Shown here: in pieces, positions 517-48,166 of the stretch
Position numbering within the stretch: position 1 is the stretch's first letter
How the letters are laid out: each line of letters begins with the position of its first letter
Sequence record: MT176427.1
DNA from: Escherichia phage CJ19
Direction: 5' to 3' (one strand)
Length of the DNA: 49,567 nt
Position numbers and translations under genes: made by a program
The notes under the pieces: model-generated
What the model saw: only the letters and a program-made list of their open reading frames with translations
What the model was told of the DNA's origin: nothing
Database searches by the model: none

Positions 517-562
517 AGTATACCCGCACAGCGGCGGGTATGTTTAGCAATTCGTGCTATTC
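517..562 (-). promoter_or_regulatory. early promoter cassette (ATAGCAC box + hairpin + -10 TATACT)
   Basis: Box 543-562; hairpin ACCCGC/GCGGGT; 22-bp spacer; start of 253-486 downstream. Confidence 0.5.
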
Positions 563-796
563 GTGAAAATCCTCAGGGCAATCGCGCTTATAGTCTGCGA
601 GATCTTTTGCTATTGATCTTGACCATGATTCAAATGGAGTGCCTTGGACCTCTTCAAATGACATGTCAAGATTTGAGAATTCCCAAGCATCACCCTTGAA
701 CCCAGCCATTGTAAGAGCCTTGCAAACAAGACCGCGAAATAAAAGGAACTGATCCTGCTCAGTTAAATCAAATTGCAACTTTTCCATCTTAAACAC
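557..796 (-). CDS. hypothetical protein (79 aa)
   Basis: ORF immediately downstream of the methyltransferase gene (8-bp overlap); no motif recognised. Confidence 0.35.
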   Translation of the reverse strand: MFKMEKLQFDLTEQDQFLLFRGLVCKALTMAGFKGDAWEFSNLDMSFEEVQGTPFESWSRSIAKDLADYKRDCPEDFHE

Positions 797-1517
797 TCCG
801 CTTACGTGGTTTCTTTCGGCTTACGCCAGGGCAAATCTCAGAGACGCTAACATACGTCGTTTTCTGTTCCTCACCTTCTTTCAGCTTTCGCATGACGAAG
901 ATGACAGATCCTTTATTGTTTCCATCCACAGGCTTTCCGGTCAGTCCAGCTATGAAAGCTAGTCGTCCTGTTCGGCAGTATTCCTGCTGGTCAATTTCTG
1001 TTATCTCTGCCTCAATCCAGATGATCTCAGCCGCATTGCGTCTCGCCTCAGCGAACCACGCCGTCGAGTTATCGCCAGGCAAGAGCATGTCAATCTGGTT
1101 CCCGTGCTCCATCTGCTCAATCGCTTTCTTAACGAAAGGATCTGGATGTGAGTAAGGAGGGTTAAGCCATATGTGCTTATTTCTGCCCCACCAGATCTTA
1201 AGGCAGTTCAATTGCTCGCTATAGAACTTTTCGCAAACCGCATTGTTAGCGCTGGCGGCGGCGTCGATGTCATACTTTCCATAACGCGACTCCATCCATG
1301 AGATCAGCTCCATGTCGGTGGCCCAAAGATCTCTTACTGCGTCAGGTGTCTTACTTCCGGCGTATCGTTTTCCAGTTACATGATAAAATGTGTCAGGCTT
1401 AACTGCTTGGTAGTGCCCGTTACCAGGAACGAGGGCATTTGCCACGAAGTTTTCACGCTCGATCTGCTCAAAGCTAACGAATGCGTCATGAGTATCCTTG
1501 TCGTTTGAGTCGATCAT
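789..1517 (-). CDS. dam: DNA N6-adenine methyltransferase (Dam-like)
   Basis: 242-aa ORF carrying the N6-MTase catalytic tetrapeptide NPPY (WLNPPYSHP); expected in T1-like early region. Confidence 0.75.
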   Translation of the reverse strand: MIDSNDKDTHDAFVSFEQIERENFVANALVPGNGHYQAVKPDTFYHVTGKRYAGSKTPDAVRDLWATDMELISWMESRYGKYDIDAAASANNAVCEKFYSEQLNCLKIWWGRNKHIWLNPPYSHPDPFVKKAIEQMEHGNQIDMLLPGDNSTAWFAEARRNAAEIIWIEAEITEIDQQEYCRTGRLAFIAGLTGKPVDGNNKGSVIFVMRKLKEGEEQKTTYVSVSEICPGVSRKKPRKRSV

Positions 1518-1518
1518 C

Positions 1519-1791
1519 TTATTTAACCTCGGTAACTTTGCAGTTATTAACAGCGACGAACCCGCCGACGCTAACTTTGACCTGACTTTCAGTCACGTTG
1601 TAAACTGCCTTCCCTAAGAAAGTTTGCAGTTCGTAGTGATCGCCTTCACGCTCAATAACAACGCCCTTGTCTGAAACAATCTGCGACTTGGTTACTGTGA
1701 AGGATTCCTTACCGCAATCGTAAAACTTGGTATCTTCTGCACAACCTGCCATTGCCACAACTGCCAGTAGAGCTATGATTGACTTTTTCAT
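1519..1791 (-). CDS. small lipoprotein (90 aa)
   Basis: N-terminal signal peptide with lipobox (VAMAGC); own promoter cassette 1831-1876 and conserved leader. Confidence 0.6.
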   Translation of the reverse strand: MKKSIIALLAVVAMAGCAEDTKFYDCGKESFTVTKSQIVSDKGVVIEREGDHYELQTFLGKAVYNVTESQVKVSVGGFVAVNNCKVTEVK

Positions 1792-1830
1792 TTTGATTTC
1801 CTTGGTTGGTTACTTCGTTTCGATGAGGTG

Positions 1831-1876
1831 ATAATACACCACCTCACCGCTTCGTCTTTAGCAATTCGTGCTATTC
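1831..1876 (-). promoter_or_regulatory. early promoter cassette (ATAGCAC box + -10 TATTAT)
   Basis: Box 1857-1876; hairpin GAGGTG/CACCTC with -10 in loop; 22-bp spacer; leader TCATCGAAACGAAG. Confidence 0.5.
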
Positions 1877-2286
1877 AGCATATCAGCAACTGCTTTCTTG
1901 TATTCCTCCTGACCGTATGCCACCGCCGCGAACCCGCCACGCTCACGCACGCGCCGGAGGAAATCTTTCTGCTCCTTACTGACTGGTGATGCCTTGCCTT
2001 TCCCGCTCTTATTGACGCGCTTCAATTCTATGGCCCCGAACGGATATTTACCGAACGGGCCTAGAAGGAATACAAAANCACTAACCCCTTTCAATAACCC
2101 GCTCTGAGCATCCTTTAGCGCCGTGTGGATGTGCTTCTTGTTCTCATTAACGGCGTGCCAGAACAGCAAATCAACATGCCTAACCTTAGTCCAAGTCACG
2201 CAGTCTACCTGGTGCTTGCTTTCCGTCCATGTGTCAGATTTGTCTGGAGTGTAATATTCCAGGTAGTCGCCTTTGTCTGTGATCAT
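1858..2286 (-). CDS. VRR-NUC / PD-(D/E)XK-like nuclease (putative)
   Basis: 142-aa ORF with a candidate (D)-x(n)-ELK nuclease motif (GAIELKRV); sits directly upstream of and overlapping the helicase gene; one codon contains an N at 2078. Confidence 0.4.
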   Translation of the reverse strand: MITDKGDYLEYYTPDKSDTWTESKHQVDCVTWTKVRHVDLLFWHAVNENKKHIHTALKDAQSGLLKGVSXFVFLLGPFGKYPFGAIELKRVNKSGKGKASPVSKEQKDFLRRVRERGGFAAVAYGQEEYKKAVADMLNSTNC

Positions 2287-4385
2287 AAGTTACCGTCCAA
2301 TCCAAAATCCTTACGTGAGATAATATCCTCACCCTTTGCATTCTTGCGGTGAGTTACCCGCACCGGATGCGCTATGTGGTGAGCATTGTTTAAAATCATT
2401 TTCGCACTTCTGTAAGCTGCCATTAATTTTGCGATCTTACTGTCATGAACGTGAGGTAATACCCCTTTCTGCTTCCATATCGTGTGGCATACCTGTGCCG
2501 TTGACTGAGGGAAGAACTTCTCATACGCGATGAAGTTAACTCCAACTGAGTCTGTCAGGTCGTACCGATAAAGAATGCCAGTATGATTACGTGTCAGCGT
2601 GACTTCGAAACTGTTAACTGTGCACCAGTCGTTTTTGGTGTAAGCCTTACCAGTCAGGTTATCATTGGGATCTTTCAGGCTCACGTCACAGCAACGGCAT
2701 ATTCTCGCCACTACGTCATTTTCAGCGCCACATCCCTTAACAATCACCTCGCCAGTGCGATCATCAATCTGGTCTTCACATATGCGAGACTTCCAGAAAT
2801 ACTCGCAACGATTTCCGTTTTCATCTCTGTGAATGCAGCGGCGAGCGTAAAAACTGTTCTCAGTTCCGCACAGTTCACATTTTTTCGGCTCTTTCTTACC
2901 ATCAAAGCGGCGCTGGTACTGAGCCTCTTCAAGAATCGGATCAAAGTAAAGCTGACCCAGCTCGTCCATGCAACCCGCAAAATCCCATACCAGGTGATCT
3001 TCCTTCACCATTCCCATCTCTTTTTGCCACGGCTTAAGCAATCTCATACCTCGACCAAGCAACTGGATCAGCAGAGTAAGTGAACCGATTTTGCGAAGGA
3101 TTACCGAAAAATCCCAAAACGGAACGTTAACTCCAGTGGTTAGCGCCATAACCTGAAATATGTATTTTATCTCGCCACGGTTAGCCGCCTCAAGTATTGC
3201 TTGTCGCTTTTTGGTGTTAGTCTTTTCCGTAATGATCTCATAGGTGGAGCCATGTGGAAGATAGCTCGCTGCCTCCTTGCAGTGTCGCTGACCTGCGCAC
3301 GTAATCAGTACGCCATTTCGCTTTTTCGCTTCCTCTACGACCATCCCCATGATTCGCTTTGTCATGCTGGCGTTGTCATGGATTTTATTTTCCATCGCCT
3401 TCATTTCTTTCTGGCTAAAATCCGCAGTTCCGTCCTGGCTTGATGCCTTGAACTCACCAAGATCATAGCCAGCGTCACCAACACTTCCGAATATTGTTGG
3501 AACAACTGAACCGAACTCAATAAGGTAATTAGTGTCGATGTTAGTAACCTGCTCACGCCAGAACCCAGGTAACTTAGGGTTATCGACAACAATCGGAGTT
3601 GTGCCTCTGAACTCAGAACCAGTCATGCCGAAGATGCGTAATTCTTTCCCGTTCTTCTCTTTGCAGCGGCGCATCAATTCAGTGATAATGATCGTGTACT
3701 GGCTTCGCTTGGTGCCGAGAACAGGCTTGCCAGTCTTCCGTCTGATTAGCAATTGCTTATCCATCACCTGAACGCCAACTTCTACGCCGTCAAGGTATCC
3801 ATTGACATAACCTTCGCTGTTTTTCGGGTAGTCAACGAATACACGCTCACCTTTTTCAGTGAGCATCATTTCAATCGTCTCTTCGTTGTCGATGGCGGCG
3901 GCAAGGTCTTCCCAATCCACCTGGTGACATTCATCAATACCCAGCACCATAGGTGTAAAATCACCAAGCGCCTTAAACAGACCGTTTGCAACCGTTCCTT
4001 CCGAACCGACAACGATTGGGAAGTAAGCTGATTTTGTGTTCAAGCCAGCACAGTAAACTGAGTTAGGAACGCCAAAGTTTGAGATCTCCTCACTATCCTG
4101 AGCGACAATATCGCCCTGACGCGCCAGTATCATCATCGACAAGCCCATTTCTTTNACGCGCGATGCGATCATGGCAAAGCCGATCGTCTTACCTGCCGAC
4201 ACTGACGCCTTAACGATGAATGGATGCTTATAGCGAGCAATGCGCTTGCCGATCTCGTCATACATTACGCACTGATACTCATAAGGAACCATGTCGCCAA
4301 ATGTGAATTTATCCTGAATCTCTTTAATCCTCTGCGGCCCGAGGTCTTCTATCTGTTTTTTAATGGATTTAATGCGCATAGCCAT
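2283..4385 (-). CDS. SF2 DNA helicase with C-terminal Cys-rich zinc-finger region
   Basis: Walker A (SAGKTIGFA), DExH box (GIDECHQ), C-terminal CxxC clusters; promoter cassette 4423-4467 upstream; N at 4155. Confidence 0.8.
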   Translation of the reverse strand: MAMRIKSIKKQIEDLGPQRIKEIQDKFTFGDMVPYEYQCVMYDEIGKRIARYKHPFIVKASVSAGKTIGFAMIASRXKEMGLSMMILARQGDIVAQDSEEISNFGVPNSVYCAGLNTKSAYFPIVVGSEGTVANGLFKALGDFTPMVLGIDECHQVDWEDLAAAIDNEETIEMMLTEKGERVFVDYPKNSEGYVNGYLDGVEVGVQVMDKQLLIRRKTGKPVLGTKRSQYTIIITELMRRCKEKNGKELRIFGMTGSEFRGTTPIVVDNPKLPGFWREQVTNIDTNYLIEFGSVVPTIFGSVGDAGYDLGEFKASSQDGTADFSQKEMKAMENKIHDNASMTKRIMGMVVEEAKKRNGVLITCAGQRHCKEAASYLPHGSTYEIITEKTNTKKRQAILEAANRGEIKYIFQVMALTTGVNVPFWDFSVILRKIGSLTLLIQLLGRGMRLLKPWQKEMGMVKEDHLVWDFAGCMDELGQLYFDPILEEAQYQRRFDGKKEPKKCELCGTENSFYARRCIHRDENGNRCEYFWKSRICEDQIDDRTGEVIVKGCGAENDVVARICRCCDVSLKDPNDNLTGKAYTKNDWCTVNSFEVTLTRNHTGILYRYDLTDSVGVNFIAYEKFFPQSTAQVCHTIWKQKGVLPHVHDSKIAKLMAAYRSAKMILNNAHHIAHPVRVTHRKNAKGEDIISRKDFGLDGNL

Positions 4386-4422
4386 AGTATTAAATGCCTT
4401 TCATGTTCGTTCGATTGACGTT

Positions 4423-4467
4423 ATAATAACAGCCATCGAAACCAATGTTTAACAAAAAGTGCTATTG
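4423..4467 (-). promoter_or_regulatory. promoter cassette for helicase operon
   Basis: Box variant ATAGCAC-N3-TTGTTAAA at 4448-4467; -10 TGtTATTAT; leader CAATCGAACGAACATGAAAGG. Confidence 0.45.
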
Positions 4468-4477
4468 AGGTGATGAG

Positions 4478-4951
4478 ATGAATGCAGTCGACAAGCGAAC
4501 CATTAACGGCAACAACGGAACAGTCCGAACTGAAGACAAAAAGCAACGAAAACGACCTTCAGGTTACTACGTTTTAAAAGATGAAGTAAAGGCCGGGCTT
4601 CGGGCGCGACTGGAGATGGTTCTCGACTTCTACGGAACGAAGGCCAATATCGCAAAGCAACTGAAGGTTAGTCGCCAGGCGGTTGAGGAATGGTTCAAGA
4701 GGGGCATGATGTCGGCCCGAGGCGCTCAACTGGCGCACAACCGATACAAGCGAACTGGAGAGGGTTTTCGCGCGACTTTTTGCCGACCGGATCTGCAATT
4801 CGATGGCAACGGAAAGCCGCTGACACTCCGGTGCAAAAAACGTCACATGCTGCGCGTTGTTACTGAGGCTGAATTAGCTACGAAGCCAGAATGTCGATCG
4901 TGGCGCAAGATTAAGGCCGCTAACGAAGCAGCACGAAAAGCTAAAGAGTAA
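4478..4951 (+). CDS. putative HTH DNA-binding protein (Cro/YdaS-like)
   Basis: Segment IAKQLKVSRQAVEEWFKRG resembles a Cro/YdaS-type helix-turn-helix; strong RBS GAGGTGATGAG before ATG; basic protein; terminator 4956-4990 follows. Confidence 0.4.
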   Translation: MNAVDKRTINGNNGTVRTEDKKQRKRPSGYYVLKDEVKAGLRARLEMVLDFYGTKANIAKQLKVSRQAVEEWFKRGMMSARGAQLAHNRYKRTGEGFRATFCRPDLQFDGNGKPLTLRCKKRHMLRVVTEAELATKPECRSWRKIKAANEAARKAKE

Positions 4952-4955
4952 AATT

Positions 4956-4990
4956 AAGGTTGTGCCATAATCGGTGCAACCTTTTTTATT
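4956..4990 (+). terminator. intrinsic terminator
   Basis: Hairpin AAGGTTGTGCC-ATAATC-GGTGCAACCTT followed by TTTTTT. Confidence 0.6.
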
Positions 4991-5008: not shown

Positions 5009-5932
5009 ATGCACTACGATAAGAGAGAGGTTTTACCAAGAATGCGCGGCCTATGGGATAAGGCGCTTATCAATATATGTGGCGCAGATCCTAAGTTTTT
5101 CCAGACCAAAAAACACCAGCCATGCATTTATTGCGGAGGAAGCGATCGCGCGAGATGGACCAACAAAGTTAGCGAAGATGGTGATGGTGGAATTATCTGC
5201 AACCAATGCGGTTCAGGAGATGGTATTATTTGGGTCCAGAAGCTGCGAGGTGAGTCATTTAGTGAATGTATCGATGTTCTCGGTGAGTGGTTAAACCTTA
5301 TCCCTGTAGAAGTGGTTAATAAGGCAAATAAGCAAGCATCAAGGACTCAGCATTACAAAATGGGCGCTCAAGTAGATCATGAAAAAGTTCTTGAAGTCAT
5401 GGAGCGGACTGTAAGAGTTGAATCAAGCCAACTCACAACATATGAGGGTATTTATCTTGATGATGGATTCGATGTTGGTATAGCTAAGGATGGATCAATG
5501 ATTCATGCCGTACCTTGCTCGATGGTTTACGAGGATGGGATTGGTAATGAGTTCTGCAACTTAATGTTTATTGATGGAGATTCAAATGTTAAATTCCTTG
5601 CTGGTGATTACACTCGTGATTCTGTTGCTGTCATTGGTTCTTGGCAGGTTGATGGTTACACTTATGTTGTTGATAATTTTATTGATGGCGTACGTGTTCA
5701 TATTGCTACTGGGGGGCGTGAGGTGTTTGTTGCTTTCTCCTGTTATAACATGGAAATGGTTATTCACCGAGACAAGTCCCGCAGCTTCAGGATTGCTTGT
5801 CGTGATCATGATTTTGATATACTCTCTATTGCTGATGACAGGTCTGTTGGTGTAGTCATCCCAAATGATGGCAAGTCATTTAAAACAGGCATTAGAAAGA
5901 AAGTTTACAAAGCAAACGACTTGCTAAAATAA
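5009..5932 (+). CDS. DNA primase (zinc-binding N-terminus, Toprim-like core)
   Basis: N-terminal CxxC...CxxC (CIYCGG...CNQCG) zinc-binding element followed by acidic D-rich core; location next to helicase; followed by terminator 5933-5955. Confidence 0.55.
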   Translation: MHYDKREVLPRMRGLWDKALINICGADPKFFQTKKHQPCIYCGGSDRARWTNKVSEDGDGGIICNQCGSGDGIIWVQKLRGESFSECIDVLGEWLNLIPVEVVNKANKQASRTQHYKMGAQVDHEKVLEVMERTVRVESSQLTTYEGIYLDDGFDVGIAKDGSMIHAVPCSMVYEDGIGNEFCNLMFIDGDSNVKFLAGDYTRDSVAVIGSWQVDGYTYVVDNFIDGVRVHIATGGREVFVAFSCYNMEMVIHRDKSRSFRIACRDHDFDILSIADDRSVGVVIPNDGKSFKTGIRKKVYKANDLLK

Positions 5933-5961: not shown

Positions 5962-5998
5962 AGCAATGCTATACTGCACTTTAGCAATTCGTGCTAAA
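5962..5998 (+). promoter_or_regulatory. extended -10 promoter (TGCTATACT) with the palindromic box downstream at operator position
   Basis: TGCTATACT at 5967-5975; perfect palindrome TTTAGCA-ATTCG-TGCTAAA at 5980-5998, 23 nt before tail fibre ATG. Confidence 0.4.
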
Positions 5999-8476: not shown

Positions 8477-9133
8477 TTAGAATTGTTCGATGGATTCAGA
8501 TTGTACAGGCTCGGAAGGTGCATTGGCAATCTTATCATCAACCTTTTGCGTATCTGCCTTTTTCGCTGGCTGGAAACCGCGAGCGCTACCGATGCTCAAT
8601 TCAGCCTTGCGCTTCTGCAAGTGGTCTTCTGCAATCTTCCATTCCGCCGCGCCGAGTGAACCTTTCGCGCTCTTATAGATCACCTGGAGGTCTTCAAGTT
8701 TTTCGCAGTTGGTGATCAGTTTTTTGTAGTCCGCTGCCGTGCGCTTTGCAATTTCTGCATCGTCATCGCTCTGAGTGATTCCAAGCGCTGCGCACAATGC
8801 GTAACGGCGACCGTATGAAGTTGTTGAGCCGTAAGCCTGGGCGCTAATCTTCTCGATCGGCATATTGTACTGAAAAGCAAGCCACTCGCCGGAACTGTGA
8901 AGGATGAGCGTCTCAATGTGCATTACCTTTTCGGTTGACGTATCCAGATTTGACTGGATAACCATAAGGTCATGCTCTTTTAGTGCTGGCTCTACGGCCT
9001 CCAAAACGTCCGTCAGGTTTGAGTAATTGTTTTTCAGGTGACCGTTAAAGCCTGATTTTCTTGCTATGGCAAACTGCTTTTTAGCTGCAATTAGAGCGGC
9101 TGAAACATTCGAAAACTTATCTGATGTACGCAT
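8477..9133 (-). CDS. Erf-like single-strand annealing protein (putative)
   Basis: 218-aa ORF between ssb and exonuclease; N-terminal region resembles Erf-family pattern; own promoter cassette 9171-9213 with consensus TGCTATAAT. Confidence 0.5.
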   Translation of the reverse strand: MRTSDKFSNVSAALIAAKKQFAIARKSGFNGHLKNNYSNLTDVLEAVEPALKEHDLMVIQSNLDTSTEKVMHIETLILHSSGEWLAFQYNMPIEKISAQAYGSTTSYGRRYALCAALGITQSDDDAEIAKRTAADYKKLITNCEKLEDLQVIYKSAKGSLGAAEWKIAEDHLQKRKAELSIGSARGFQPAKKADTQKVDDKIANAPSEPVQSESIEQF

Positions 9134-9170
9134 TATATATACCTTTATTTACTTCGTTTGATTTACGGTG

Positions 9171-9213
9171 ATTATAGCAAATCACCGCGTTCGTGTTTAG
9201 CAAAAAGTGCTAC
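9171..9213 (-). promoter_or_regulatory. early promoter cassette (ATAGCAC box + TGCTATAAT)
   Basis: Box 9196-9213; hairpin CGGTGAT/ATCACCG; consensus extended -10. Confidence 0.5.
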
Positions 9214-10250
9214 GCTTCCAGGATGTGCTTGAACTGTTTCATTACCCAATCAGGTGTATCCAGTTCGACTTCCGGCTCGCCGTTGTTGTATGAAGGCCAC
9301 ACGTCATTGGCTTCGCACATTGAAAAGGTGTGAATCACGCTCATGTACTGCGCTCGACCAATCTTAAGCTGATCGCTACTCATCCGGTACGCCATCGGCA
9401 AGTAAGGCTCCTTCTTCTCCTGGGCCAGCAATCGCACAACCACAGGTCGCGTTTCCTCAAAGCACTTGACGAACAGGTCACGCTGCAATGCCATCTTGAG
9501 GTAATATCCAAGGTTGAACGCCATGCGCGGGAACTCAGTCGGGTTTGCGCTCATTGTCGTTTTGTAATCAGTGATGACGACAATTTCAGGATGAATCTCA
9601 GGATCGTAACCCATGCGCCGGATGGATTCTGGATCATTAATGATGTCAACATGGTCAAGCCGAACCTTGACTTTAACGCCACAAATTACGCCGAACAACG
9701 AATACTCACGGAATGCCGTCTCGCTATTCATACAGGCGTTATGCTCAGGAATCATTTCAAGAACCTGGCGCATACTTACGCAAGCGTCGTAGTCTTCCGC
9801 CTTAACCAGCTCAACGCCATCGGCCCACGCCTGACACTGTGCGATCATATCAATCAGCCACATGACGTTGAGGTCTTCGCCGCAATCAACCATCATCTTG
9901 ATCAGTTCTGGATATTGCTTACCGCTTGTACCAGTCAGGCCAAATGATTTTAATTTCGTTGCCAATGCTGCCTGGCTAGTGATCACGTTTTCAATCTCGC
10001 TTTCTTTCGGTGCGCGGCGATACTGGCGCTCAAACAGTGCCTTACTCTCGAAATTGGTATGCGACTGCGTACCGAAGACCAGTGCCTTAGTCGTCGAGTT
10101 CATTTCAAACTTCCACGCCGCAGGGCAAGTACTGTGAATCTTGCTGAGTGACGAGCCTGATACATAATCGGCGGTCCACTCATCTTTGCTGTGGTAAAAG
10201 TCGTTACTCATTTCTTCTGACGTGAAGTATTGAAACAGTGGCTTGGTCAT
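9210..10250 (-). CDS. recombination exonuclease (RecE/YqaJ-like, PD-(D/E)XK)
   Basis: 346-aa ORF upstream of annealase gene, acidic nuclease-like core (VVITDYKTT); canonical sigma70-like promoter 10284-10312 upstream. Confidence 0.45.
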   Translation of the reverse strand: MTKPLFQYFTSEEMSNDFYHSKDEWTADYVSGSSLSKIHSTCPAAWKFEMNSTTKALVFGTQSHTNFESKALFERQYRRAPKESEIENVITSQAALATKLKSFGLTGTSGKQYPELIKMMVDCGEDLNVMWLIDMIAQCQAWADGVELVKAEDYDACVSMRQVLEMIPEHNACMNSETAFREYSLFGVICGVKVKVRLDHVDIINDPESIRRMGYDPEIHPEIVVITDYKTTMSANPTEFPRMAFNLGYYLKMALQRDLFVKCFEETRPVVVRLLAQEKKEPYLPMAYRMSSDQLKIGRAQYMSVIHTFSMCEANDVWPSYNNGEPEVELDTPDWVMKQFKHILEA

Positions 10251-10283
10251 CTCTTTAATCCTCGTTCGTTGTTGATGTGGCTA

Positions 10284-10312
10284 ACTATACTCGCTTAGTC
10301 GCATTAGTCAAG
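10284..10312 (-). promoter_or_regulatory. canonical sigma70-like promoter TTGACT-N17-TATAGT
   Basis: -35 at 10307-10312 and -10 at 10284-10289 on the minus strand; leader CATCAACAACGAACGAGGA before exonuclease ATG. Confidence 0.5.
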
Positions 10313-10680: not shown

Positions 10681-10726
10681 AATAGCACGAATAGCTAAAT
10701 ACTCCGTAATCATCCTTTGCTATAGT
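10681..10726 (+). promoter_or_regulatory. promoter cassette (ATAGCAC box + TGCTATAGT)
   Basis: Box 10681-10700; -10 at 10721-10726; leader CCATCGAAACGAAACAC; drives lipoprotein gene. Confidence 0.5.
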
Positions 10727-10766
10727 TACTCCATCGAAACGAAACACACTCACTAAGGAATACAAA

Positions 10767-10997
10767 ATGACTAAATTCATCAAATCGGCAATAATCGCAG
10801 CAGCAGTAATCATGACTGTAGGTTGTTCTTCCGGACCCCGACCTGACGGTTGGTGCGCGACTGAAGTTAACGGCTCATGTGTTGCTAAATGGAAAGGAGG
10901 TGTAGTTGTAGCTTCAGGTGAAACAGATATCCGCTGGGATGGTATCAAAAACCTCTCTGGATCAGTTAAAGATTATGGCACCAAGGAGTGGAAATAA
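10767..10997 (+). CDS. small outer-membrane lipoprotein (Cor-like superinfection-exclusion candidate)
   Basis: 76-aa ORF, signal peptide plus lipobox (MTVGC); promoter cassette 10681-10726 and conserved leader; adjacent to tail-tip gene region. Confidence 0.5.
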
Positions 10998-15369: not shown

Positions 15370-15414
15370 GATGTTTAGCCTTTCGTGCGATTTATCGAAG
15401 TTTCATTATACAGG

Positions 15415-25333: not shown

Positions 25334-25451
25334 AATTTGTTTTCCTTTGTTTGTTAGAAAGCCGTGATTAAGTTCACGGCTCTATAATAGCATTTTTTGT
25401 TAAACGGTCAACAGCTTTTTATGTTAAGCGATTATGTCGCTCTCTGGCAAT

Positions 25452-33085: not shown

Positions 33086-33114
33086 AAGATACCAGTCAGT
33101 GAGATGTCTGTCAA
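33086..33114 (-). promoter_or_regulatory. sigma70-like promoter TTGACA-N17-TATCTT
   Basis: Consensus -35 at 33109-33114, 17-bp spacer, -10 at 33086-33091; followed by ~140-nt untranslated leader. Confidence 0.4.
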
Positions 33115-34072: not shown

Positions 34073-34102
34073 TTCTGCTTCCTCGTTCGTTTCGATGGGG
34101 TA

Positions 34103-34148
34103 ACTATACAGCTACCCCGATTATGAGTTTTAACAAAAAGTGCTATCG
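34103..34148 (-). promoter_or_regulatory. early promoter cassette (ATAGCAC box + TATAGT)
   Basis: Box 34128-34148; -10 at 34103-34108 in hairpin loop; 22-bp spacer. Confidence 0.5.
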
Positions 34149-34702: not shown

Positions 34703-34731
34703 TTTGCTTCCCTCTCGTTTGGTGTGAAATA

Positions 34732-34776
34732 ACTATAACAAAACCCGCCGGAGCGGGTTTAGCAATTAGTGCTATT
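34732..34776 (-). promoter_or_regulatory. early promoter cassette (ATAGCAC box + TGTTATAGT)
   Basis: Box 34757-34776; hairpin AACCCGC/GCGGGTT in spacer; 22-bp spacer. Confidence 0.5.
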
Positions 34777-35997: not shown

Positions 35998-36029
35998 TTT
36001 TAACTTCCTTTCGTGTGGTTGATGTGGGG

Positions 36030-36075
36030 ATTATACCAGTCAGGATGAATCCCCCTTTAACAAAACGTGCTATTT
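36030..36075 (-). promoter_or_regulatory. early promoter cassette (ATAGCAC box + TGGTATAAT)
   Basis: Box 36056-36075; 22-bp spacer; leader CATCAACCACACGAAAGGAAG before phosphatase ATG. Confidence 0.5.
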
Positions 36076-36876: not shown

Positions 36877-36917
36877 GTGTGATTCCTCAGTTGATTTGTG
36901 TTCACTTGACAGGAGAC

Positions 36918-36963
36918 ACTATATCTAATGTCTCCGAGCAAGTTTTAACAAAAAGTGCTATTC
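36918..36963 (-). promoter_or_regulatory. early promoter cassette (ATAGCAC box + TATAGT)
   Basis: Box 36943-36963; hairpin GGAGACA/TGTCTCC with -10 in loop. Confidence 0.5.
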
Positions 36964-37718: not shown

Positions 37719-37761
37719 TTGTGAATCCTCTGTTATTGGTTGTATCTGCTTCAATAAGGCC

Positions 37762-37807
37762 ACTATATCAAATGGCCTTGCGGAAGGTTTAACGATTAGT
37801 GCTATTT
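37762..37807 (-). promoter_or_regulatory. early promoter cassette (ATAGCAC box + TGATATAGT)
   Basis: Box 37788-37807; hairpin AAGGCCA/TGGCCTT with -10 in loop. Confidence 0.5.
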
Positions 37808-38115: not shown

Positions 38116-38329
38116 TGTGGCGCTCCATGTAGTCAGCCATTTTGATAAGGTGTTCACCCATTGCGCGGACTGTTGTCGACTCCCTCATGGGGAACGCTCC
38201 TGATTCGTGTTCAATCACCATCTCGACGGTTACAACTCCCAGCGTCTTTCTCGTGTAAATGCAGCAAGAATCACCATCTGAATCGTTAAATATCTTGCTT
38301 TCTTTCTTAATTTCATAATCGTTAATCAT
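38105..38329 (-). CDS. hypothetical protein (74 aa), possible distant member of the small-paralog family
   Basis: ATGA overlap with upstream paralog; C-terminal helix VRAMGEHLIKMADYME loosely resembles family helix. Confidence 0.35.
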   Translation of the reverse strand: MINDYEIKKESKIFNDSDGDSCCIYTRKTLGVVTVEMVIEHESGAFPMRESTTVRAMGEHLIKMADYMERHNEQ

Positions 38330-38553
38330 ACAATACCCTTATCAGCTCTGTGTGCAGCTTCAATCAGATACGCAGCTAACTGGCGAGCCTGGTCTGGCGT
38401 GTACAGCATGTAACTACTTGGGTATGATTCTTCGTGAGGGTTGAAGTCAAGGCGCACCTTGAAAGTCACCTTGTCATTGCTATGAATCTTCACAGCCTCA
38501 ATTTCGGCCTGCTCGTTGTAGTCGTCTGCGATGCGTACGGCGGTTGTGCTCAT
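38326..38553 (-). CDS. small paralog family member P1 (75 aa)
   Basis: C-terminal motif YTPDQARQLAAYLIEAA shared with 39113-39334 and 39331-39537; promoter cassette 38593-38638. Confidence 0.5.
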   Translation of the reverse strand: MSTTAVRIADDYNEQAEIEAVKIHSNDKVTFKVRLDFNPHEESYPSSYMLYTPDQARQLAAYLIEAAHRADKGIV

Positions 38554-38592
38554 AAATTACCCCTTAGTTGATTGTTTCACTTCAATGAGTGC

Positions 38593-38638
38593 ACTATAGC
38601 AAATGCACTCACGGCAGTTTTAACAAAAAGTGCTATCG
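38593..38638 (-). promoter_or_regulatory. early promoter cassette (ATAGCAC box + TGCTATAGT)
   Basis: Box 38618-38638; hairpin TGAGTGCA/TGCACTCA with -10 in loop; drives paralog P1. Confidence 0.5.
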
Positions 38639-39539: not shown

Positions 39540-39754
39540 TTATTTCCCCTCCGCTTCGTCTGCTGCAAGGATTAATGCCGCCGCTAACTTGCGGGCCGCG
39601 TCAGGTGAGTATTGCATCAGCGTTTGACAGTCGGAGTAACCGTCAGGATCGAATTCAAGGTTGACAACATGCCCGCGAACGGTTCCCATCGTGACGCTGA
39701 CCCCTCTGCTTGTTCAAAGTGAACATCGTCAATGCGTACAGTTTACATAATCAT
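39540..39754 (-). pseudogene. decayed fourth copy of the small paralog family (P4)
   Basis: Manual translation: ATG ATT ATG TAA (stop at codon 4), then TVRIDDVHFEQAEG in one frame and VSVTMGTVRGHVVNLEFDPDGYSDCQTLMQYSPDAARKLAAALILAADEAEGK in another; intact promoter cassette 39779-39824 and RBS. Confidence 0.45.
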
Positions 39755-39778
39755 TTCCTCTTCGTTGTTGATAGGGTA

Positions 39779-39824
39779 ATCATAGCTGACTACCCGATTT
39801 GTTGTTTAGCAATTCGTGCTATTC
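39779..39824 (-). promoter_or_regulatory. early promoter cassette (ATAGCAC box + TATGAT)
   Basis: Box 39805-39824; 22-bp spacer; drives decayed P4 and P3-P2 operon. Confidence 0.45.
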
Positions 39825-41527: not shown

Positions 41528-41574
41528 AATAGCACTTTTTGCTAATGACCGATCAGGTGTGATTCGCTATTATT
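41528..41574 (+). promoter_or_regulatory. promoter cassette (ATAGCAC box + TATTAT)
   Basis: Box 41528-41546; -10 at 41569-41574; leader CCATCGAAACGAG. Confidence 0.5.
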
Positions 41575-41612
41575 ACTCCATCGAAACGAGTGAAGAGAAC
41601 TGGAGAAAATAA

Positions 41613-41816
41613 ATGAGCACTGTAAAAATGTATTGCTACATCGTGATGTCTGAGCCGTGTGATCCGAATTACGATACGACAGTTCACTGCGTATGCCTCA
41701 GTGAACAGATGGCTAAGCAGGTTTGCGAGAAGATGAACATGCGCGATGGTTTCAACAACTATGAATACTACGAAGCGGAGTTGCAGAAATGGAGTTACGC
41801 CAAGAATGTGCACTGA
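41613..41816 (+). CDS. hypothetical Cys-containing small protein (67 aa)
   Basis: Promoter cassette 41528-41574 and leader CCATCGAAACGAG upstream. Confidence 0.4.
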   Translation: MSTVKMYCYIVMSEPCDPNYDTTVHCVCLSEQMAKQVCEKMNMRDGFNNYEYYEAELQKWSYAKNVH

Positions 41817-42447: not shown

Positions 42448-42491
42448 ATAGCACGAATTGCTAAACTAAGCCTCACGGATTGAGGCATAAT
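42447..42491 (+). promoter_or_regulatory. promoter cassette (ATAGCAC box + CATAAT)
   Basis: Box 42447-42465; hairpin GCCTCA/TGAGGC; leader TCATCGAAACGAAG. Confidence 0.5.
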
Positions 42492-42529
42492 CATTTCATC
42501 GAAACGAAGTACACAAAGAGGAAGTAAAA

Positions 42530-42754
42530 ATGTCAGTTAAAGCTCAGAACGTAGTAGCACACATCGAAGCAAAAGGCCGTGCGATCGTCAAGCTGGACCG
42601 CGCCGCAGGCGTAAGCCAAATCACCATCACGCGCCGTGAGTTCGACCGCTACGTTGTTGGCACACATCCAGGCTCAATCATCCGTAGCCTTACCCGTACT
42701 GAGATGATCAACCTGTTAAATGATAACTCACTTTACATCAATTCCTGGAGCTAA
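42530..42754 (+). CDS. hypothetical protein (74 aa)
   Basis: Promoter cassette 42447-42491 and leader TCATCGAAACGAAG upstream. Confidence 0.4.
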   Translation: MSVKAQNVVAHIEAKGRAIVKLDRAAGVSQITITRREFDRYVVGTHPGSIIRSLTRTEMINLLNDNSLYINSWS

Positions 42755-43379: not shown

Positions 43380-44044
43380 AAAAGGTAATTTACTGCTTGT
43401 TCGACGGTTCTGGTATCGCTGGCCTCCCATGGGCGGAAGATGGTCACACCGTCTACTGCTTCAATGCGGACTCCGGCAATCATGGCGAATACCATATCAA
43501 GATGAAGCATGAGAACATCCACTACGTCAACATGTGGATTGACAAGGATTTCATCACTAAGTGTGAATTGCTCGGCCTGCCTCCGGCGCAAATGGTTATC
43601 GGCTTTCCTGATTGCACGCTGTTCTCTCAGTCTGGATCACAGCATGAGCGCGGGGAAGATGAGCTGGCATACGCCCTGGCTAACGCGAAGCTCGTCGAAG
43701 AAGTCGGCAATCACTTCCAGGCACCATGGATGGTTGAGAATCCGGTAGGCAAGCTGTCAAGCCTGTGGCGTAAGCCTGACTTCTATTTCAATCCTTGCGA
43801 TTATGGCGGTTACGTTGATCACGATGATGTTTATCACCCAAGAATGCCCCCTCGTAATGCTTACAATAAAAAGACTTGCATTTGGTGTGGCAATGGATTT
43901 GTTGAACCTATTAAAAAGCCAGTTGAGAGCATTGGATTCTTCTGGGCCTGGAAATACTGCGGCGGAAAGTCTGCAAAGACAAAGGTACTCCGCTCATTAA
44001 CACCGGAAGGCTTTGCTCGCGCACTATATGAAAGCAACAAATAG
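43376..44044 (+). CDS. DNA methyltransferase-like protein (C5-cytosine-type motif order)
   Basis: Motif I-like FDGSG, motif IV-like GFPDC with Cys, motif VI-like ENPVG in the right order and spacing; short (222 aa). Confidence 0.4.
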   Translation: MKKVIYCLFDGSGIAGLPWAEDGHTVYCFNADSGNHGEYHIKMKHENIHYVNMWIDKDFITKCELLGLPPAQMVIGFPDCTLFSQSGSQHERGEDELAYALANAKLVEEVGNHFQAPWMVENPVGKLSSLWRKPDFYFNPCDYGGYVDHDDVYHPRMPPRNAYNKKTCIWCGNGFVEPIKKPVESIGFFWAWKYCGGKSAKTKVLRSLTPEGFARALYESNK

Positions 44045-44084
44045 CACTAATTGCTAAAGCCCTTCGGGGCTTTTCCTGTATATT
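44040..44084 (+). promoter_or_regulatory. promoter cassette (ATAGCAC box + TGTATATT)
   Basis: Box 44040-44058; hairpin AGCCC/GGGCT; leader TCATCGAAACGAAACAC. Confidence 0.5.
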
Positions 44085-44120
44085 CATCTCATCGAAACGA
44101 AACACGCAAAGGAAATCAAA

Positions 44121-44471
44121 ATGACAGCAACAACTAAAAACTTCATTAGCAACGAAAACGTATTATACAAAGCTCGTGTTAAAGACGGTGTAGAGCAAAT
44201 CAAGAAAGATGGTAAATGGGTTAACCTGGAAGAACGCGGTAAGTACATCAAGACAAAAACTCTTTACTGCACGAAGGTTAATCACAGGTCAGCAGTTAAA
44301 AAAGACTTCAAAGAAGGTAAGCGCTATCAGGTAAATATTCATGCTGGCCTTGGCCAATCTGCCGGTTACATTTACGATGAGGATGGTAATGCTTGGCAGC
44401 TTTACCGAAACGAAGAGGTTGGCTTCATGAGCCTCTGCGGTACGTACAAGTGGCAGGCGGCGTACAAATAA
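44121..44471 (+). CDS. hypothetical Lys-rich protein (116 aa)
   Basis: Promoter cassette 44040-44084 and leader TCATCGAAACGAAACACGCAAAGGAAA upstream. Confidence 0.4.
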   Translation: MTATTKNFISNENVLYKARVKDGVEQIKKDGKWVNLEERGKYIKTKTLYCTKVNHRSAVKKDFKEGKRYQVNIHAGLGQSAGYIYDEDGNAWQLYRNEEVGFMSLCGTYKWQAAYK

Positions 44472-44540: not shown

Positions 44541-46124
44541 ATGTTTGATTTCAACGAAGATAAATTGTCAATCGATCAGGTCATGGCTGTAGCCGCTGCC
44601 GATAACCTGCCACCTTTGCGCGTTGCCATCAATGCGAACGGATACAGGCAGAGCCAATCATTCTGGAAAGCCCCAACAGAAATTGACTCAGGCGGTGACA
44701 AATATCCGGTTATCTCACTTGGTAACGATTATGATGTCGTTGGTAAGCTGTCAAGCAATGCCGCTCGTTCAGTTCAATTCCCCGAGTCGTCCGCTTACAT
44801 GCATTTCCTCGGATGCATATCAGCCGCCATGCTGGGCCGATTTACGGTTGAGTATCACGGAACACAACAGCCGACCGCTCTTTACGTCGTAACCAGTCAG
44901 CCACCATCGACAGGTAAATCAGCCATCAACTCACTTTCGCTGGCCCCGATGATCGCAGAGACTGAGCGACTCAACGAGATCCGAAAGCGCGACCGCAAGA
45001 AGATTATGGCTAAACTATCTGCTCTATCCAAGGAGATGAAGCAGGAAAAATCACCGTCCGACATGGCGGCACTGTTTGAGGAAAAAGAAGAACTGGAAGA
45101 AAAACTGGAACGCCTTTGTGACATCGTATTCCCCGTATCCGACACCACGCCGGAAGGTCTGGCGCGAATCAACAACCGCCAGGGTAACTTCTCTGTGATC
45201 TCGGATGAAGCGACGAGCGTAAACTCACTGTTAGGCATGACCTATGGTGATGGCTCAAAGAAAACGAACAGCGAACTTGTGCTTAAGGCATGGGATGCTG
45301 GTAACGTATCTATCGCCCGTGCGAACGCAGACAACAACATGAGCTTTATTGCGATGGGCTGCATATCTGTAATTGCGCAGGATGAAACAATCAACGCGAT
45401 CATGAATGCTGGCGCGCGTGGTATCGGTGTATCCGAGCGATTCTTGCTTGTGCGTGAGAAGTCATTCCTTGGCGAGCGTGTATTCGTTGACGAAAAAGGC
45501 GAATCAACATACGAGCCGATTGATGGCGGACTCAAGGCGGACTACTTCCGTCTGGTCCATGAGATCATGAGCGAACACGAAGTCAACCTGACAGTGAGCA
45601 CGTCGGCGATGAAATATCTCAACCGTGCGCGTCAGGATATGGAACCTCACCTTGCGGACGGCGGGAAGTATTCACACACAATGCTTCGCGGCGCGCTGGG
45701 TAAGTTCGATAAGCAGGCTATCAGGATCGCGGCTGTTCTTCACACTGTGCGTAACTGGTTTAATCCCAATGGCGGGAGTCCGAAGAAGTCCAGAGAGATT
45801 GAGCTTGACACAATGCAGGAAGCGGTAATTATGTTCCAGGAGCTGAGTAAGACTTATCTGTCATCTGCAAACGCTGCTGGTCATGCTGGCGACCATGCTG
45901 AGATGAATAAGCTGATCGATATTCTGATCAAGCAAGGTAAGAACGGGAAAGGCGTTGTAGGTGTCAGATCCCTATATGAAGCGGCTCGTAAGGTTAAGCC
46001 ATTCGAGGGCCAGGCTGGCGTAATGACTCGAATCAAAGACCATCTGATCCCTATGCTTGATGAGAAAAACTATACGTGCCTGATTGGTGATAAAATTTAC
46101 ATTAATCCGCGACTGCTGGGGTAA
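44541..46124 (+). CDS. P-loop NTPase (putative replication/recombination ATPase)
   Basis: 527-aa ORF with P-loop-like SQPPSTGKSA; N- and C-terminal modules shared with 39819-40373. Confidence 0.5.
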   Translation: MFDFNEDKLSIDQVMAVAAADNLPPLRVAINANGYRQSQSFWKAPTEIDSGGDKYPVISLGNDYDVVGKLSSNAARSVQFPESSAYMHFLGCISAAMLGRFTVEYHGTQQPTALYVVTSQPPSTGKSAINSLSLAPMIAETERLNEIRKRDRKKIMAKLSALSKEMKQEKSPSDMAALFEEKEELEEKLERLCDIVFPVSDTTPEGLARINNRQGNFSVISDEATSVNSLLGMTYGDGSKKTNSELVLKAWDAGNVSIARANADNNMSFIAMGCISVIAQDETINAIMNAGARGIGVSERFLLVREKSFLGERVFVDEKGESTYEPIDGGLKADYFRLVHEIMSEHEVNLTVSTSAMKYLNRARQDMEPHLADGGKYSHTMLRGALGKFDKQAIRIAAVLHTVRNWFNPNGGSPKKSREIELDTMQEAVIMFQELSKTYLSSANAAGHAGDHAEMNKLIDILIKQGKNGKGVVGVRSLYEAARKVKPFEGQAGVMTRIKDHLIPMLDEKNYTCLIGDKIYINPRLLG

Positions 46125-46127
46125 ATT

Positions 46128-47079: not shown

Positions 47080-47573
47080 TTCTGTAGCTCCTTAACACAA
47101 TATTGATACTCGAACGCCCGTCGATTCTTAAGCCCCTTTGACCGTTCTTTCTTTCCAGTCTTCGGATTCTTAAAGTAAGTCCAGGCCCATAGCTGATTGC
47201 AAGCCTCAAGTAGTTTACCCTGGTTAGTAAGTCTCAGCATAGTGGAATTACGGTAAGCACCAGTGCCAACGTTGAAAGTGAAGCTGTACATTGCCGCACG
47301 GAAGTTATCCGGAACGTCAACCTTAATCCGCTTATCAACCTCACGCTTGGCGATGTCGATATGCTTATATAGCAATGCGTCGCATTCTCTTTTGGTGTAG
47401 GTCTTGCCGAGAATAACGTCAGGTCCAGTGATGCCAGCGCACACTGTCCAAACTCCGGCAATATCCTTATATGGCTTGTACTCAACGCCTTCAATCTTCT
47501 CAACAAGTGAAGGCGTTAGCGATAAAGCTACACCAAAAGAAATACTAGCAAGCGTCCTGTTTACGCTCATCAT
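47076..47573 (-). CDS. endolysin, lysozyme-like with N-terminal SAR (signal-anchor-release) domain
   Basis: Glu-x8-Asp-x5-Thr-like lysozyme catalytic region ([23 protein letters not shown]) after weakly hydrophobic N-terminus. Confidence 0.7.
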
Positions 47574-47800
47574 TATTTACCCCTTAGTTTAAGAGCCGTC
47601 CGCAAGTCTCCTGAGTCAAGCGCCTGACGAATGGCTTTGCTATCCTGATATTTCCAGTAAGCACCCCAAATGCCAAAACAAACGAACAGGATGAACGTCG
47701 CCCCTGCGATCGCCAGCTGGCCCGTTGCAGCGCCAGCGAAAGATGCCCCGCCAGTACCAGCCGTTACAGTGTTTAATACCTCTTTCATGTGATCCACCAT
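47573..47800 (-). CDS. holin / pinholin
   Basis: 75-aa ORF with Gly/Ala-rich transmembrane segments and charged C-terminus, 1-bp overlap with endolysin. Confidence 0.55.
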
Positions 47801-47865
47801 TTATGTAATTGTCAATATCTCAGTTAGTAAAAAACATAATACATTATCACGGTACAGAAAAGAAT

Positions 47866-47895
47866 CACAAAAAAGGGGAGCCTAAAGGCTCCCCG
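47866..47895 (-). terminator. intrinsic terminator upstream of lysis cassette
   Basis: On minus strand hairpin GGGGAGCC-TTTA-GGCTCCCC followed by TTTTTTGTG. Confidence 0.6.
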
Positions 47896-47920
47896 TTCGT
47901 AACGTTATGTTTTTAATGCG

Positions 47921-48094
47921 CTAGTCAGCAATAATAAATTCAACCAGCGCACCATCAATCGGCGCAAAAATCCACGTCATATCGTCGCCGTAAATCTTGT
48001 AGTTACCGTCACCTTGATACTCGGCGCTGTACGGATTGTTAACAGTGAAAGGCAGGGTTTTAGATGTGTTCTTAACGCAAAATAATTTAACCAT
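47921..48094 (-). CDS. small hypothetical protein (57 aa)
   Basis: Manually translated ORF (MVKLFCVKNTSKTLPFTVNNPYSAEYQGDGNYKIYGDD...) downstream of promoter cassette 48121-48166 with RBS GAGGA; followed by terminator 47866-47895. Confidence 0.3.
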   Translation of the reverse strand: MVKLFCVKNTSKTLPFTVNNPYSAEYQGDGNYKIYGDDMTWIFAPIDGALVEFIIAD

Positions 48095-48120
48095 GATTGA
48101 ATCCTCTGTGAGTGAGACAT

Positions 48121-48166
48121 GAATATAGCGCCTTCCGGAGCTATAGTGTTAGGCAATTCGTGCTAT
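48121..48166 (-). promoter_or_regulatory. promoter cassette (ATAGCAC box variant + TATATT)
   Basis: Box 48148-48166 (TTGCCTAA variant); precedes small ORF 47921-48094. Confidence 0.4.

Follow-up and report, generated by a model that had tools for sequence, protein, structure and literature searches.

A repeated upstream box in the T1-like phage genome MT176427.1 matches the marbox of host class II MarA/SoxS/Rob promoters

The marbox is the site of the Escherichia coli AraC-family activators MarA, SoxS and Rob, and its classical consensus is AYnGCACnnWnnRYYAAAY (PMC3709825). The Grainger laboratory has obtained the consensus gcactaattgctaaa for MarA by chromatin immunoprecipitation sequencing (PMC5684230) and uses the search pattern gcannwwntgnnaaa (PMC12052159). 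In class II Mar/Sox/Rob promoters a forward marbox overlaps the -35 element; forward sites of Salmonella cluster at -41, and the class II promoters there have canonical -10 elements and on average 1.9 matches to TTGACA (PMC10268841). RamA binds the micF promoter at about -41 on 5'-CACT-7X-AAA (PMC8811837), and the rfaY P1 and fumC sites are listed at -41 and -39, respectively. In phage TLS, 18 intergenic direct repeats of 21 nucleotides (nt) have been described (German et al., 2024; PMC11447400), with the consensus aaATAGCACnnnTTGnTAAAA, running in the direction of transcription, some 76 nt ahead of start codons and divided into A, T and G subgroups by their middle triplet; similar repeats were stated for T1, Rtp and Rogue1. 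TLS yielded only three sigma70-like promoters and neither an RNA polymerase gene nor a sigma gene, and stoperators, enhancer-binding sites or UP elements were suggested as roles of the repeats, whose function was posed as an open question (PMC11447400). Here we analyse such a repeated box in the genome of Escherichia phage CJ19 (MT176427.1; the whole stretch of 49,567 nt is called the window) and compare it with the marbox.

The box of the window is the same element as the TLS repeat, with the same consensus, intergenic position, co-orientation and distance of about 76 nt to start codons. Unlike in the account of German et al. (2024), the repeat is tied here to a -10 element at a fixed distance and to the marbox. 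The first of these links, absent from PMC11447400, had been made in a first-pass annotation of the window. The repeat itself was already known, as was the class II promoter type; what is new is that the two are equated, genome-wide on a phage. Our literature search found no publication joining the T1-family repeats, or phages or Drexlerviridae, with the marbox or MarA, and no map of transcription start sites (TSS) for any Drexlerviridae phage.

With up to two mismatches allowed, the box ATAGCACNNNTTGYTAAA has 18 matches in the window, compared to 0.22 expected from shuffled sequence and a largest shuffle count of 2; T1 holds 22 copies (0.29 expected). The 16 sites of the first-pass annotation were all recovered, within 1-2 nt, among the 18, and its expectation that the box is commoner than in shuffled sequence was borne out. 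It had missed two orphan boxes in antisense position (5980-5997, minus strand, and 25387-25404, plus strand) as well as a degenerate copy (4928-4945, plus strand). Sixteen of the 18 boxes read GCAC...AAA towards a -10 element and a downstream gene, on whose strand the box lies at all 16 sites, and the stop codon of the upstream gene usually adjoins the box as T(A/G)A-ATAGCAC. The distance between the TTGYTA part of the box and the best -10 hexamer is 22 bp at 11 sites, 23 bp at three and 21 bp at two, in agreement with the spacing first proposed. The hexamers are likewise sigma70-like as claimed (TATAGT, TATAAT, TATTAT, TATATT, TATACT, TATGAT or CATAAT), with TG at -15/-14 in 7/16. At 15 sites a Shine-Dalgarno sequence and an ATG follow 24-43 nt past the -10 element (29-43 nt where a full open reading frame, ORF, follows), as had been noted of the start codon; in the cassette at 48149, about 27 nt separate the -10 element from the start codon as read from the sequence.

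The first-pass annotation had called the box phage-specific, which cannot be maintained because the box is the host marbox consensus. Two sites, 34758-34772 and 44044-44058 (both GCACTAATTGCTAAA), agree with the MarA consensus at 15/15 positions, and five more agree at 14/15. Exact matches to the pattern gcannwwntgnnaaa number 14 in the window (1.0 expected), and every one is a box; for the 20-mer AYnGCACnnWnnRYYAAAYn there are 8 exact matches (0.025 expected) and 17 with one mismatch (0.9 expected). We also collected 437 distinct box instances from 120 IMG/VR stretches, nearly all on contigs of 41-53 kb. The only variable positions among these instances are 8 (G/T), 9-10 (A/T only), 14 (C/T only) and 19-20, and they coincide with the n, W, Y and n of the marbox consensus. 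The partly palindromic core TAGCA-N5-TGCTA, to which the first-pass annotation had drawn attention, explains 10 of the 18 conserved positions, and C7, A16-A18 and the C/T at position 14 conflict with it; the asymmetric marbox explains 17 of the 18.

The position of the box was compared with that of the micF marbox read directly from E. coli K-12 (GCACTGAATGTCAAA), which ends 20 nt before the -10 element TAGAAT and has its centre 41 bp from the annotated 5' end of MicF. Among the 14 exact-pattern sites of the window, the gap from AAA to the -10 element is 20 nt in 10 and 19 nt in two, the remaining two being the orphans, and 20 nt is also the modal gap in the other five genomes compared, namely ETEP102, T1, Rtp, IME542 and the Klebsiella Webervirus Trimon. 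In the metagenomic sample it is 20 nt in 356/437 instances and 19-21 nt in 408/437. Taking a predicted start 7 nt after the -10 element, box centres fall at -39 to -41. The consensus reads forward, on the non-template strand towards the start, as in class II promoters. The -10 hexamers follow TATAnT both in the window and in 361 further instances, and in both sets a mean of only 1.7/6 positions match TTGACA at 17-bp spacing, which bears out the proposal that an upstream box stands in place of the -35 element. With this consensus, forward orientation, gap, centre and loss of the -35 element, the cassettes show, at the level of sequence, every trait expected of a class II marbox promoter.

The cassettes thus resemble the class II Mar/Sox/Rob (RamA) promoters micF, fumC, rfaY P1 and lpxL P1 in consensus, forward orientation, a 20-nt gap identical to that of micF and a centre at about -40/-41, and they share with class II promoters of enterobacteria a canonical -10 element without a recognisable -35 element. 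Unlike host class II promoters, they are found on a phage genome, at 16-22 per 50 kb and before most non-structural gene clusters, their spacer holds a sense-strand RNA hairpin or terminator, and a conserved leader lies past the start. Host marboxes are degenerate, whereas those of the phages are near-optimal and almost invariant.

Several other promoter classes were considered and rejected. T4 middle promoters, which depend on MotA and AsiA and to which the first-pass annotation had compared the cassettes, likewise combine a host sigma70 -10 element with an activator-read upstream box in place of the -35 element. The MotA box (tTGCTTtA), however, has its centre at about -30, lies 11-13 bp upstream of the -10 element and needs phage MotA together with the sigma-remodelling AsiA, whereas the core of the cassette box lies 20 nt from the -10 element and its centre at about -40. 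Pfam scans of 20 non-structural window ORFs of at least 85 amino acids each gave no match to MotA, AsiA, AraC-type or sigma domains, and the analogy was given up. The conclusion that the promoters are of an activator type is supported, as their geometry corresponds to an activator site that overlaps the -35 element. A standard sigma70 -35/-10 arrangement does not fit, because TTGYTA is 21-23 bp from the -10 element at all 16 sites, too distant for sigma70 region 4 (workable range 16-19 bp) as had been pointed out, and a distance of 17 bp occurs only at the orphan at 25387. The two standard promoters of the first-pass annotation were confirmed, at 10284-10312 (TTGACT-N17-TATAGT) and 33086-33114 (TTGACA-N17-TATCTT). 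An UP element, which is an A/T-rich tract from -40 to -60, does not agree with the invariant G4, C5, C7 and G13 of the box. Promoters of the sigma54 type (TGGCAC-N5-TTGC) have GG and GC doublets exactly 10 bp apart and start about 12 nt downstream; the box, TAGCAC-N3-TTGC, has AG instead of GG, a spacing 2 bp short and a -10 element 20 nt further on. Consensus sites of the IHF, Fis, CRP, FNR and LexA types were compared by eye, and none fits. From these features, the cassettes appear to belong to none of the MotA-type, standard sigma70, UP-element or sigma54 promoters.

We consider it probable that host activators of the MarA/SoxS/Rob type read the box at class II sigma70 promoters, because of the exact consensus, the geometry and the fact that the same box recurs in phages infecting E. 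coli and in phages infecting Klebsiella, two hosts with marbox-binding regulators in common. Activation would be the property kept by selection at the cassettes. Each of them would be a class II MarA/SoxS/Rob-type sigma70 promoter with a near-optimal marbox of 18 nt, an asymmetric site that would be read by both helix-turn-helix (HTH) motifs of monomeric MarA, SoxS or Rob (RamA in Klebsiella). The forward box would cover about -47 to -33 and take the place of the -35 element; the bound activator would contact sigma70 region 4 and/or the alpha C-terminal domain and so recruit the host RNA polymerase, and transcription would start at the conserved A 7 nt past the -10 element. The usual activator would be Rob, which is constitutive; under antibiotic, bile or oxidative stress the activator would be MarA or SoxS. 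The good, often extended, -10 elements probably also give basal activity without an activator.

Published reporter data of T1 bear on this proposal. The T1 promoter Porf65 was assayed as a 101-bp green fluorescent protein reporter in uninfected E. coli (PMC6737242). We mapped the published T1 reporter primers (PMC6737242) onto the T1 genome and read the box content of each fragment, and the Porf65 fragment contains little more than a cassette with a perfect box. T1 Pdam was inhibited by cyclic AMP-CRP in a phage-free cell lysate. T1 fragments that hold cassettes are therefore active promoters in phage-free E. coli, and this activity in phage-free cells or lysate shows that host factors suffice to run them.

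Several points weigh against host activators as readers of the box. A Keio collection screen with the TLS-like phage LL5 returned only receptor and lipopolysaccharide genes, secB and ppiB, and not rob, marA or soxS (PMC7229145), so that no single activator is required for plaque formation; MarA, SoxS and Rob are, however, redundant. Without stress, cells contain little MarA and SoxS and their Rob is described as mostly sequestered (PMC5684230), and T1-like phages nevertheless grow fast in the laboratory. In the 437 instances, the A at box position 3 (100%) is not accounted for by the marbox consensus, and host marboxes such as those of rfaY and fumC vary far more than the phage box. Finally, the T1 protein Pir raises Pdam activity and represses Ppir, where a reversed box lies over the leader, which may mean that a phage factor acts on the box or next to it; homologues of Pir are, like the box, family-wide (824 records), with invariant residues in the HTH motif.

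Unlikely, but the strongest of the alternatives, is that a phage regulator reads the box and activates from the class II position, the box then resembling the marbox through convergence or by coincidence. The foremost candidate would be the Pir homologue encoded at 4478..4951 on the plus strand, a Cro/CI-type HTH regulator which might bind TAGCA-N5-TGCTA as a dimer. This ORF, proposed as a candidate factor in the first-pass annotation, shares 52% identity with T1 Orf23 and has a weak P22_Cro-type HTH match in Pfam. Orf23 was named Pir, and plasmid-expressed Pir activates Phol and Pdam and represses Ppir and PrecE (Laganenka et al., 2019; PMC6737242). In our mapping, Pdam has a perfect box at the class II place and Ppir has a reversed box between the -10 element and the Shine-Dalgarno sequence, as would be expected of a box reader. 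Each of the six genomes compared encodes Pir, as do 824 phage records, and Q67, W72 and R75 are invariant in its putative recognition helix. The centres of the half-sites TAGCA and TGCTA are 10 bp from each other, and the palindrome accommodates the invariant A at position 3 of the box. On the other hand, Porf65, with little beyond a perfect box and its -10 element, is unaffected by Pir, and the box-less Phol and PrecE respond to it, so that only 2/5 tested T1 promoters act as the model predicts. The palindrome is imperfect in one third of the instances (T at position 14), it leaves the invariant C7 and A16-A18 unexplained, and there is no mirror TTT on the left. Box promoters also drive the clusters that look earliest, with pir beside one of them, and a strict need for Pir would leave no starter. 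A match of 15/15 to an independent host consensus together with the spacing of micF would be very unlikely by chance. Since Pir and the box are both family-wide, their phyletic distribution cannot separate them. The ORF at 4478-4951 is then a homologue of a proven regulator and a candidate modulator, whereas its role as the factor that reads the box is at odds with the Pir-independent, box-only Porf65 and with the action of Pir on box-less promoters. The second candidate factor of the first-pass annotation, at 48166-49308, is a homologue of a T1/Rtp protein annotated as SbcD-like exonuclease and is not a credible transcription factor. T1 Orf65, which activates its own promoter and represses Ppir (PMC6737242), was also considered; the window, ETEP102 and Rtp lack a homologue of it, and so it cannot explain a family-wide element.

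It seems improbable that the primary role of the box is other than activation, either as a stoperator-like roadblock or repressor site or as the conserved end of a mobile cassette that shuffles early genes by recombination. Stoperators were raised as a role for TLS (PMC11447400), the orphans at 5980 and 25387 have no gene to drive, and the latter is kept in T1 and TLS. Late-region cassettes of Rtp and IME542 precede inserted HNH endonuclease genes and small ORFs, and box, hairpin and leader move as a unit at gene boundaries. However, the 20-nt gap, the strong -10 element, the C-A start and the co-orientation in 16/18 are traits of a promoter and not of a roadblock, and T1 cassette fragments drive reporters. 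A recombination role could coexist with a promoter role, yet it leaves the identity with the marbox unexplained. The stoperators of mycobacteriophage L5 are similar to the boxes in being many asymmetric sites, in one orientation to transcription and genome-wide. They are found inside transcription units, where the phage repressor binds them and elongation is blocked, whereas the cassette boxes are at a fixed distance from a -10 element at the heads of transcription units, and the phage has no recognised immunity repressor. PeSL cassettes of T4-type phages, which reportedly consist of a promoter and a stem-loop and for which recombinational shuffling of early genes is said to have been proposed, are like the present cassettes short repeated promoter and stem-loop units at the boundaries of small early and inserted genes; unlike them, they have ordinary sigma70 early promoters and no activator site.

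Least plausible of all is direct reading of the box by host RNA polymerase without a transcription factor, as an UP-element-like site for the alpha C-terminal domain or a displaced -35 element, for although UP elements were raised for TLS (PMC11447400), TTGYTA resembles TTGACA, cassettes are active in phage-free cells and the extended -10 element of 7/16 promoters could work without a -35 element, the box has invariant G4, C5, C7 and G13 instead of an A/T tract, TTGYTA is 21-23 bp and not 16-19 bp from the -10 element, TTGTTA at 17 bp is limited to the orphan at 25387, and 14 strict positions with a fixed 20-nt gap are untypical of UP elements.

A wider proposal, which we make more tentatively than that of the host activators as readers of the box, is that T1-like phages may run most of their early and middle transcription via host MarA, SoxS, Rob or RamA through 16-22 near-optimal class II marboxes per genome. 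T1 belongs to the seven classic T phages, and phages related to it rank among the commonest of those that infect E. coli and Klebsiella. The organisation of transcription in T1-like phages is poorly understood; they encode neither an RNA polymerase nor a sigma factor, and only about three standard promoters were found per genome. If the proposal is correct, phage development would be coupled to the antibiotic, bile and oxidative-stress state of the host, multidrug-resistant mar or ramA up-mutants would drive phage promoters harder, and the many high-affinity sites on replicating phage DNA could titrate the regulators and bound polymerase off the host regulon. A lytic phage family would then have built its promoter set on a host stress regulon. 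This would have weight for phage therapy, as clinical multidrug resistance commonly arises through over-expression of MarA or RamA; TolC, which TLS-like phages use as their receptor, is raised by the same regulators according to the MarA literature. Should host activators not be the readers, the exact mimicry of the marbox by the site of a phage factor would itself need explaining. A consensus marbox in class II position turns the open question of the TLS paper into simple experiments.

Between box and gene the cassettes have two further features. The first-pass annotation had placed a hairpin in the spacer or around the -10 element, and the segment from the box end to about +6 indeed folds far better than shuffles. 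In 95 cassettes from the six genomes, the fold of these 38 nt averages -10.4 kcal/mol compared to -4.5 kcal/mol in shuffles (mean z -2.8), and 67% have z-scores under -2. Stability favours the sense over the antisense RNA by 1.8 kcal/mol, and shuffles predict the opposite sign (p = 2.5e-10), which indicates G-U pairs and hence points to a structure used in sense RNA, that is, in transcripts arriving from the upstream unit. A DNA cruciform as the meaning of the hairpins is disfavoured, because sense-strand RNA folds better than antisense. Pairs spanning the -10 element, counted against shuffles, were 66 compared to 65.7 expected, which does not discriminate. Two forms were distinguished. The first is a GC hairpin with a T-run inside the spacer (523-542, 34738-34757 and 44059-44078, for the boxes at 543, 34758 and 44041) and would represent an intrinsic terminator of the upstream unit whose T-run reaches into the -10 element. 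The second is a stem of variable sequence around the -10 element without a T-run (e.g., 34096-34125, 36911-36940 and 38586-38615), seen at the boxes at 1857, 34129, 36944, 37788, 38619 and others. The T1 pir promoter (36409-36589) has a perfect 9-bp inverted repeat, AACGTTTAC ... GTAAACGTT, around its -10 element. The habit of a stem around the -10 element thus extends to this promoter, which has no forward box.

The start context had escaped the first-pass annotation, as had the leader. Among the 361 instances, a C at the 6th nt past the -10 element (75%) and an A at the 7th (89%) are conserved, followed by TCGAAACGA. The leader is found 6-16 nt past each -10 element, for example at 34087-34097, 1815-1825 and 42497-42507, and also at 10263-10274 after the recE promoter. 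Because this box-less promoter has the leader too, the leader (C)ATCGAAACGA is a feature of phage mRNAs independent of the marbox.

With the first 20 kb as query, megablast gave Escherichia phage ETEP102 as the closest relative of the window (90.5% identity, whole query covered), and hundreds more matches to Escherichia and Klebsiella phages of 45-53 kb. The gene order of the window agrees with that of ETEP102, T1 and Rtp, and from these relatives and the shared gene order we conclude that the window is an essentially complete Drexlerviridae (T1-like coliphage) genome. Replication and recombination genes lie at 0.5-10 kb, the structural module at 12-33 kb, small early ORFs on the minus strand at 33-41 kb, and a right arm on the plus strand at 41.5-47 kb.

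The cassette at 510..560 (minus strand) has its marbox core at 543-557 (GCACGAATTGCTAAA), the -10 element TATACT at 517-522, a hairpin resembling a terminator in the spacer and a predicted TSS at about 510, and drives the ORF at 253-486. That at 1824..1874 (minus strand; marbox 1857-1871) has a stem around the -10 element TATTAT (1831-1836) and the leader ATCGAAACGA, and drives the ORF at 1519-1791 and the Dam methylase gene at 789-1517. In this Dam-operon cassette the window shares the middle triplet GAA with ETEP102 and IME542, whereas T1 and Trimon have TTT and Rtp has TAA; the middle-triplet subtypes (GAA/TTT/TAA) were rejected as regulatory classes, since they are not conserved at orthologous promoters. 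The cassette of the helicase gene (2283-4385) is at 4416..4465 (minus strand; marbox 4448-4462, -10 element TATTAT 4423-4428, gap 19), in a divergent region and 13 nt from the start of the pir homologue. In the degenerate cassette of the primase gene (5009-5932), at 4928..4978 on the plus strand, GCACGAAAAGCTAAA at 4931-4945 has AG instead of TG, and CATAAT at 4966-4971 lies, after a gap of 20 nt, in the loop of the pir terminator; this cassette is kept in T1 (35978-35995). The recombinase gene (8477-9133) has a cassette at 9164..9213 (minus strand) with its marbox at 9196-9210, the extended -10 element TGcTATAAT at 9171-9176 and a gap of 19. The box-less sigma70 promoter at 10284..10312 (minus strand) serves the recE-like exonuclease gene at 9210-10250 and is followed by a leader of the CATCAACAACGA type. 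On the plus strand, the cassette at 10682..10733, a TAGCTA variant with one mismatch and the -10 element TATAGT at 10721-10726, drives the ORFs at 10767-10997 and 10988-11959.

In the region of the small early ORFs the cassettes are all on the minus strand. The one at 34096..34146 (marbox 34129-34143) has a stem GGGGTA/TACCCC around the -10 element TATAGT (34103-34108) and the leader ATCGAAACGA, and drives the ORF at 33860-34072. At 34725..34775, the marbox 34758-34772 is one of the two with the full MarA consensus (GCACTAATTGCTAAA); a terminator hairpin with T-run occupies the spacer, the -10 element TATAGT is at 34732-34737, and the ORF at 34544-34702 is driven with the downstream genes. The cassette at 36023..36073 (marbox 36056-36070, -10 element TGgTATAAT 36030-36035) drives the ORF at 35452-35997, whose translation has a HAD-like motif DFDGT, and that at 36911..36961 (marbox 36944-36958), with a stem GGAGACA/TGTCTCC around the -10 element TATAGT (36918-36923), drives the ORF at 36070-36876. 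A TCG variant with one mismatch at 37755..37805 (-10 element TGaTATAGT 37762-37767) drives a small ORF with its ATG at about 37718. At 38586..38636 (marbox 38619-38633), a stem GAGTGCA/TGCACTC surrounds the -10 element TGcTATAGT (38593-38598), and the ORF at 38326-38553 is driven. The cassette at 39772..39822 (marbox 39805-39819, -10 element TATGAT 39779-39784) is followed only by ATGATTATGTAA (3 codons). At the same place as window site 39716-39822 (minus strand), ETEP102 has an intact ORF of 68 amino acids, and the gene therefore seems to have been lost from the window through a nonsense change or deletion.

In the right arm three cassettes lie on the plus strand. A TAAT variant at 41529..41580, with the -10 element TATTAT at 41568-41573 and the leader ATCGAAACGA, drives the ORF at 41613-41816. 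The cassette at 42448..42498 (marbox 42451-42465) has a GC hairpin in the spacer and the -10 element CATAAT at 42486-42491, and drives the ORF at 42530-42754 with the downstream genes. The second full MarA consensus (GCACTAATTGCTAAA, marbox 44044-44058) belongs to the cassette at 44041..44091, with a terminator hairpin in the spacer and the -10 element TATATT at 44079-44084, which drives the ORF at 44121-44471 and the gene of a DUF3987 protein at 44541-46124. The weakest cassette, at 48115..48166 on the minus strand (GCCTAA, two mismatches; -10 element TATATT 48122-48127), drives the ORF at 47921-48094 and the lysis genes downstream.

The remaining standard promoter, TTGACA-N17-TATCTT at 33086-33114 (minus strand), is followed by about 150 nt without an ORF (region 32937-33114). 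ARAGORN found no tRNA anywhere in the window. In ETEP102, a tRNA-Arg is annotated between the early ORFs and the small terminase gene, at what may be a comparable position.

The orphan box at 5980..5997 (minus strand) lies antisense at the 3' end of the primase gene, without a -10 element at the proper distance, and is kept in ETEP102 and T1. It points back into the primase gene and a bidirectional terminator then follows; as 5980-5998 the sequence is nearly palindromic, and its plus strand also reads as a marbox with one mismatch. A marbox-like sequence, GCACGAAAGGCTAAA (one mismatch), at 15374-15388 (minus strand) lies 4 nt ahead of the large tail-tip gene's start codon, over the ribosome-binding site; it cannot be a class II site for this gene. 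The deviant TLS repeat DR8, just past terminator T49, may be the equivalent of this position. The second orphan, the box 25387-25404 in the element at 25387..25425 on the plus strand, is antisense in the capsid module, between the genes of the major capsid and decoration proteins. Here TTGTTA-N17-TATGTT forms a promoter of ordinary spacing which points against the late genes and could make antisense RNA; the arrangement is kept in T1 (15069-15086, minus strand) and as DR7 of TLS.

Late-region cassettes of Rtp (6319, 8428 and 16306) and IME542 (20251, 28875 and 32891) stand before inserted HNH endonuclease genes or small extra ORFs, and inserted genes in these two phages seem either to bring the cassette along or to acquire it. 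Among the metagenomic matches listed, a box with a -10 element on a contig far above the T1-like size was found only once, on an IMG/VR contig of 174 kb, where it could be due to chance or belong to another phage group with the same cassette.

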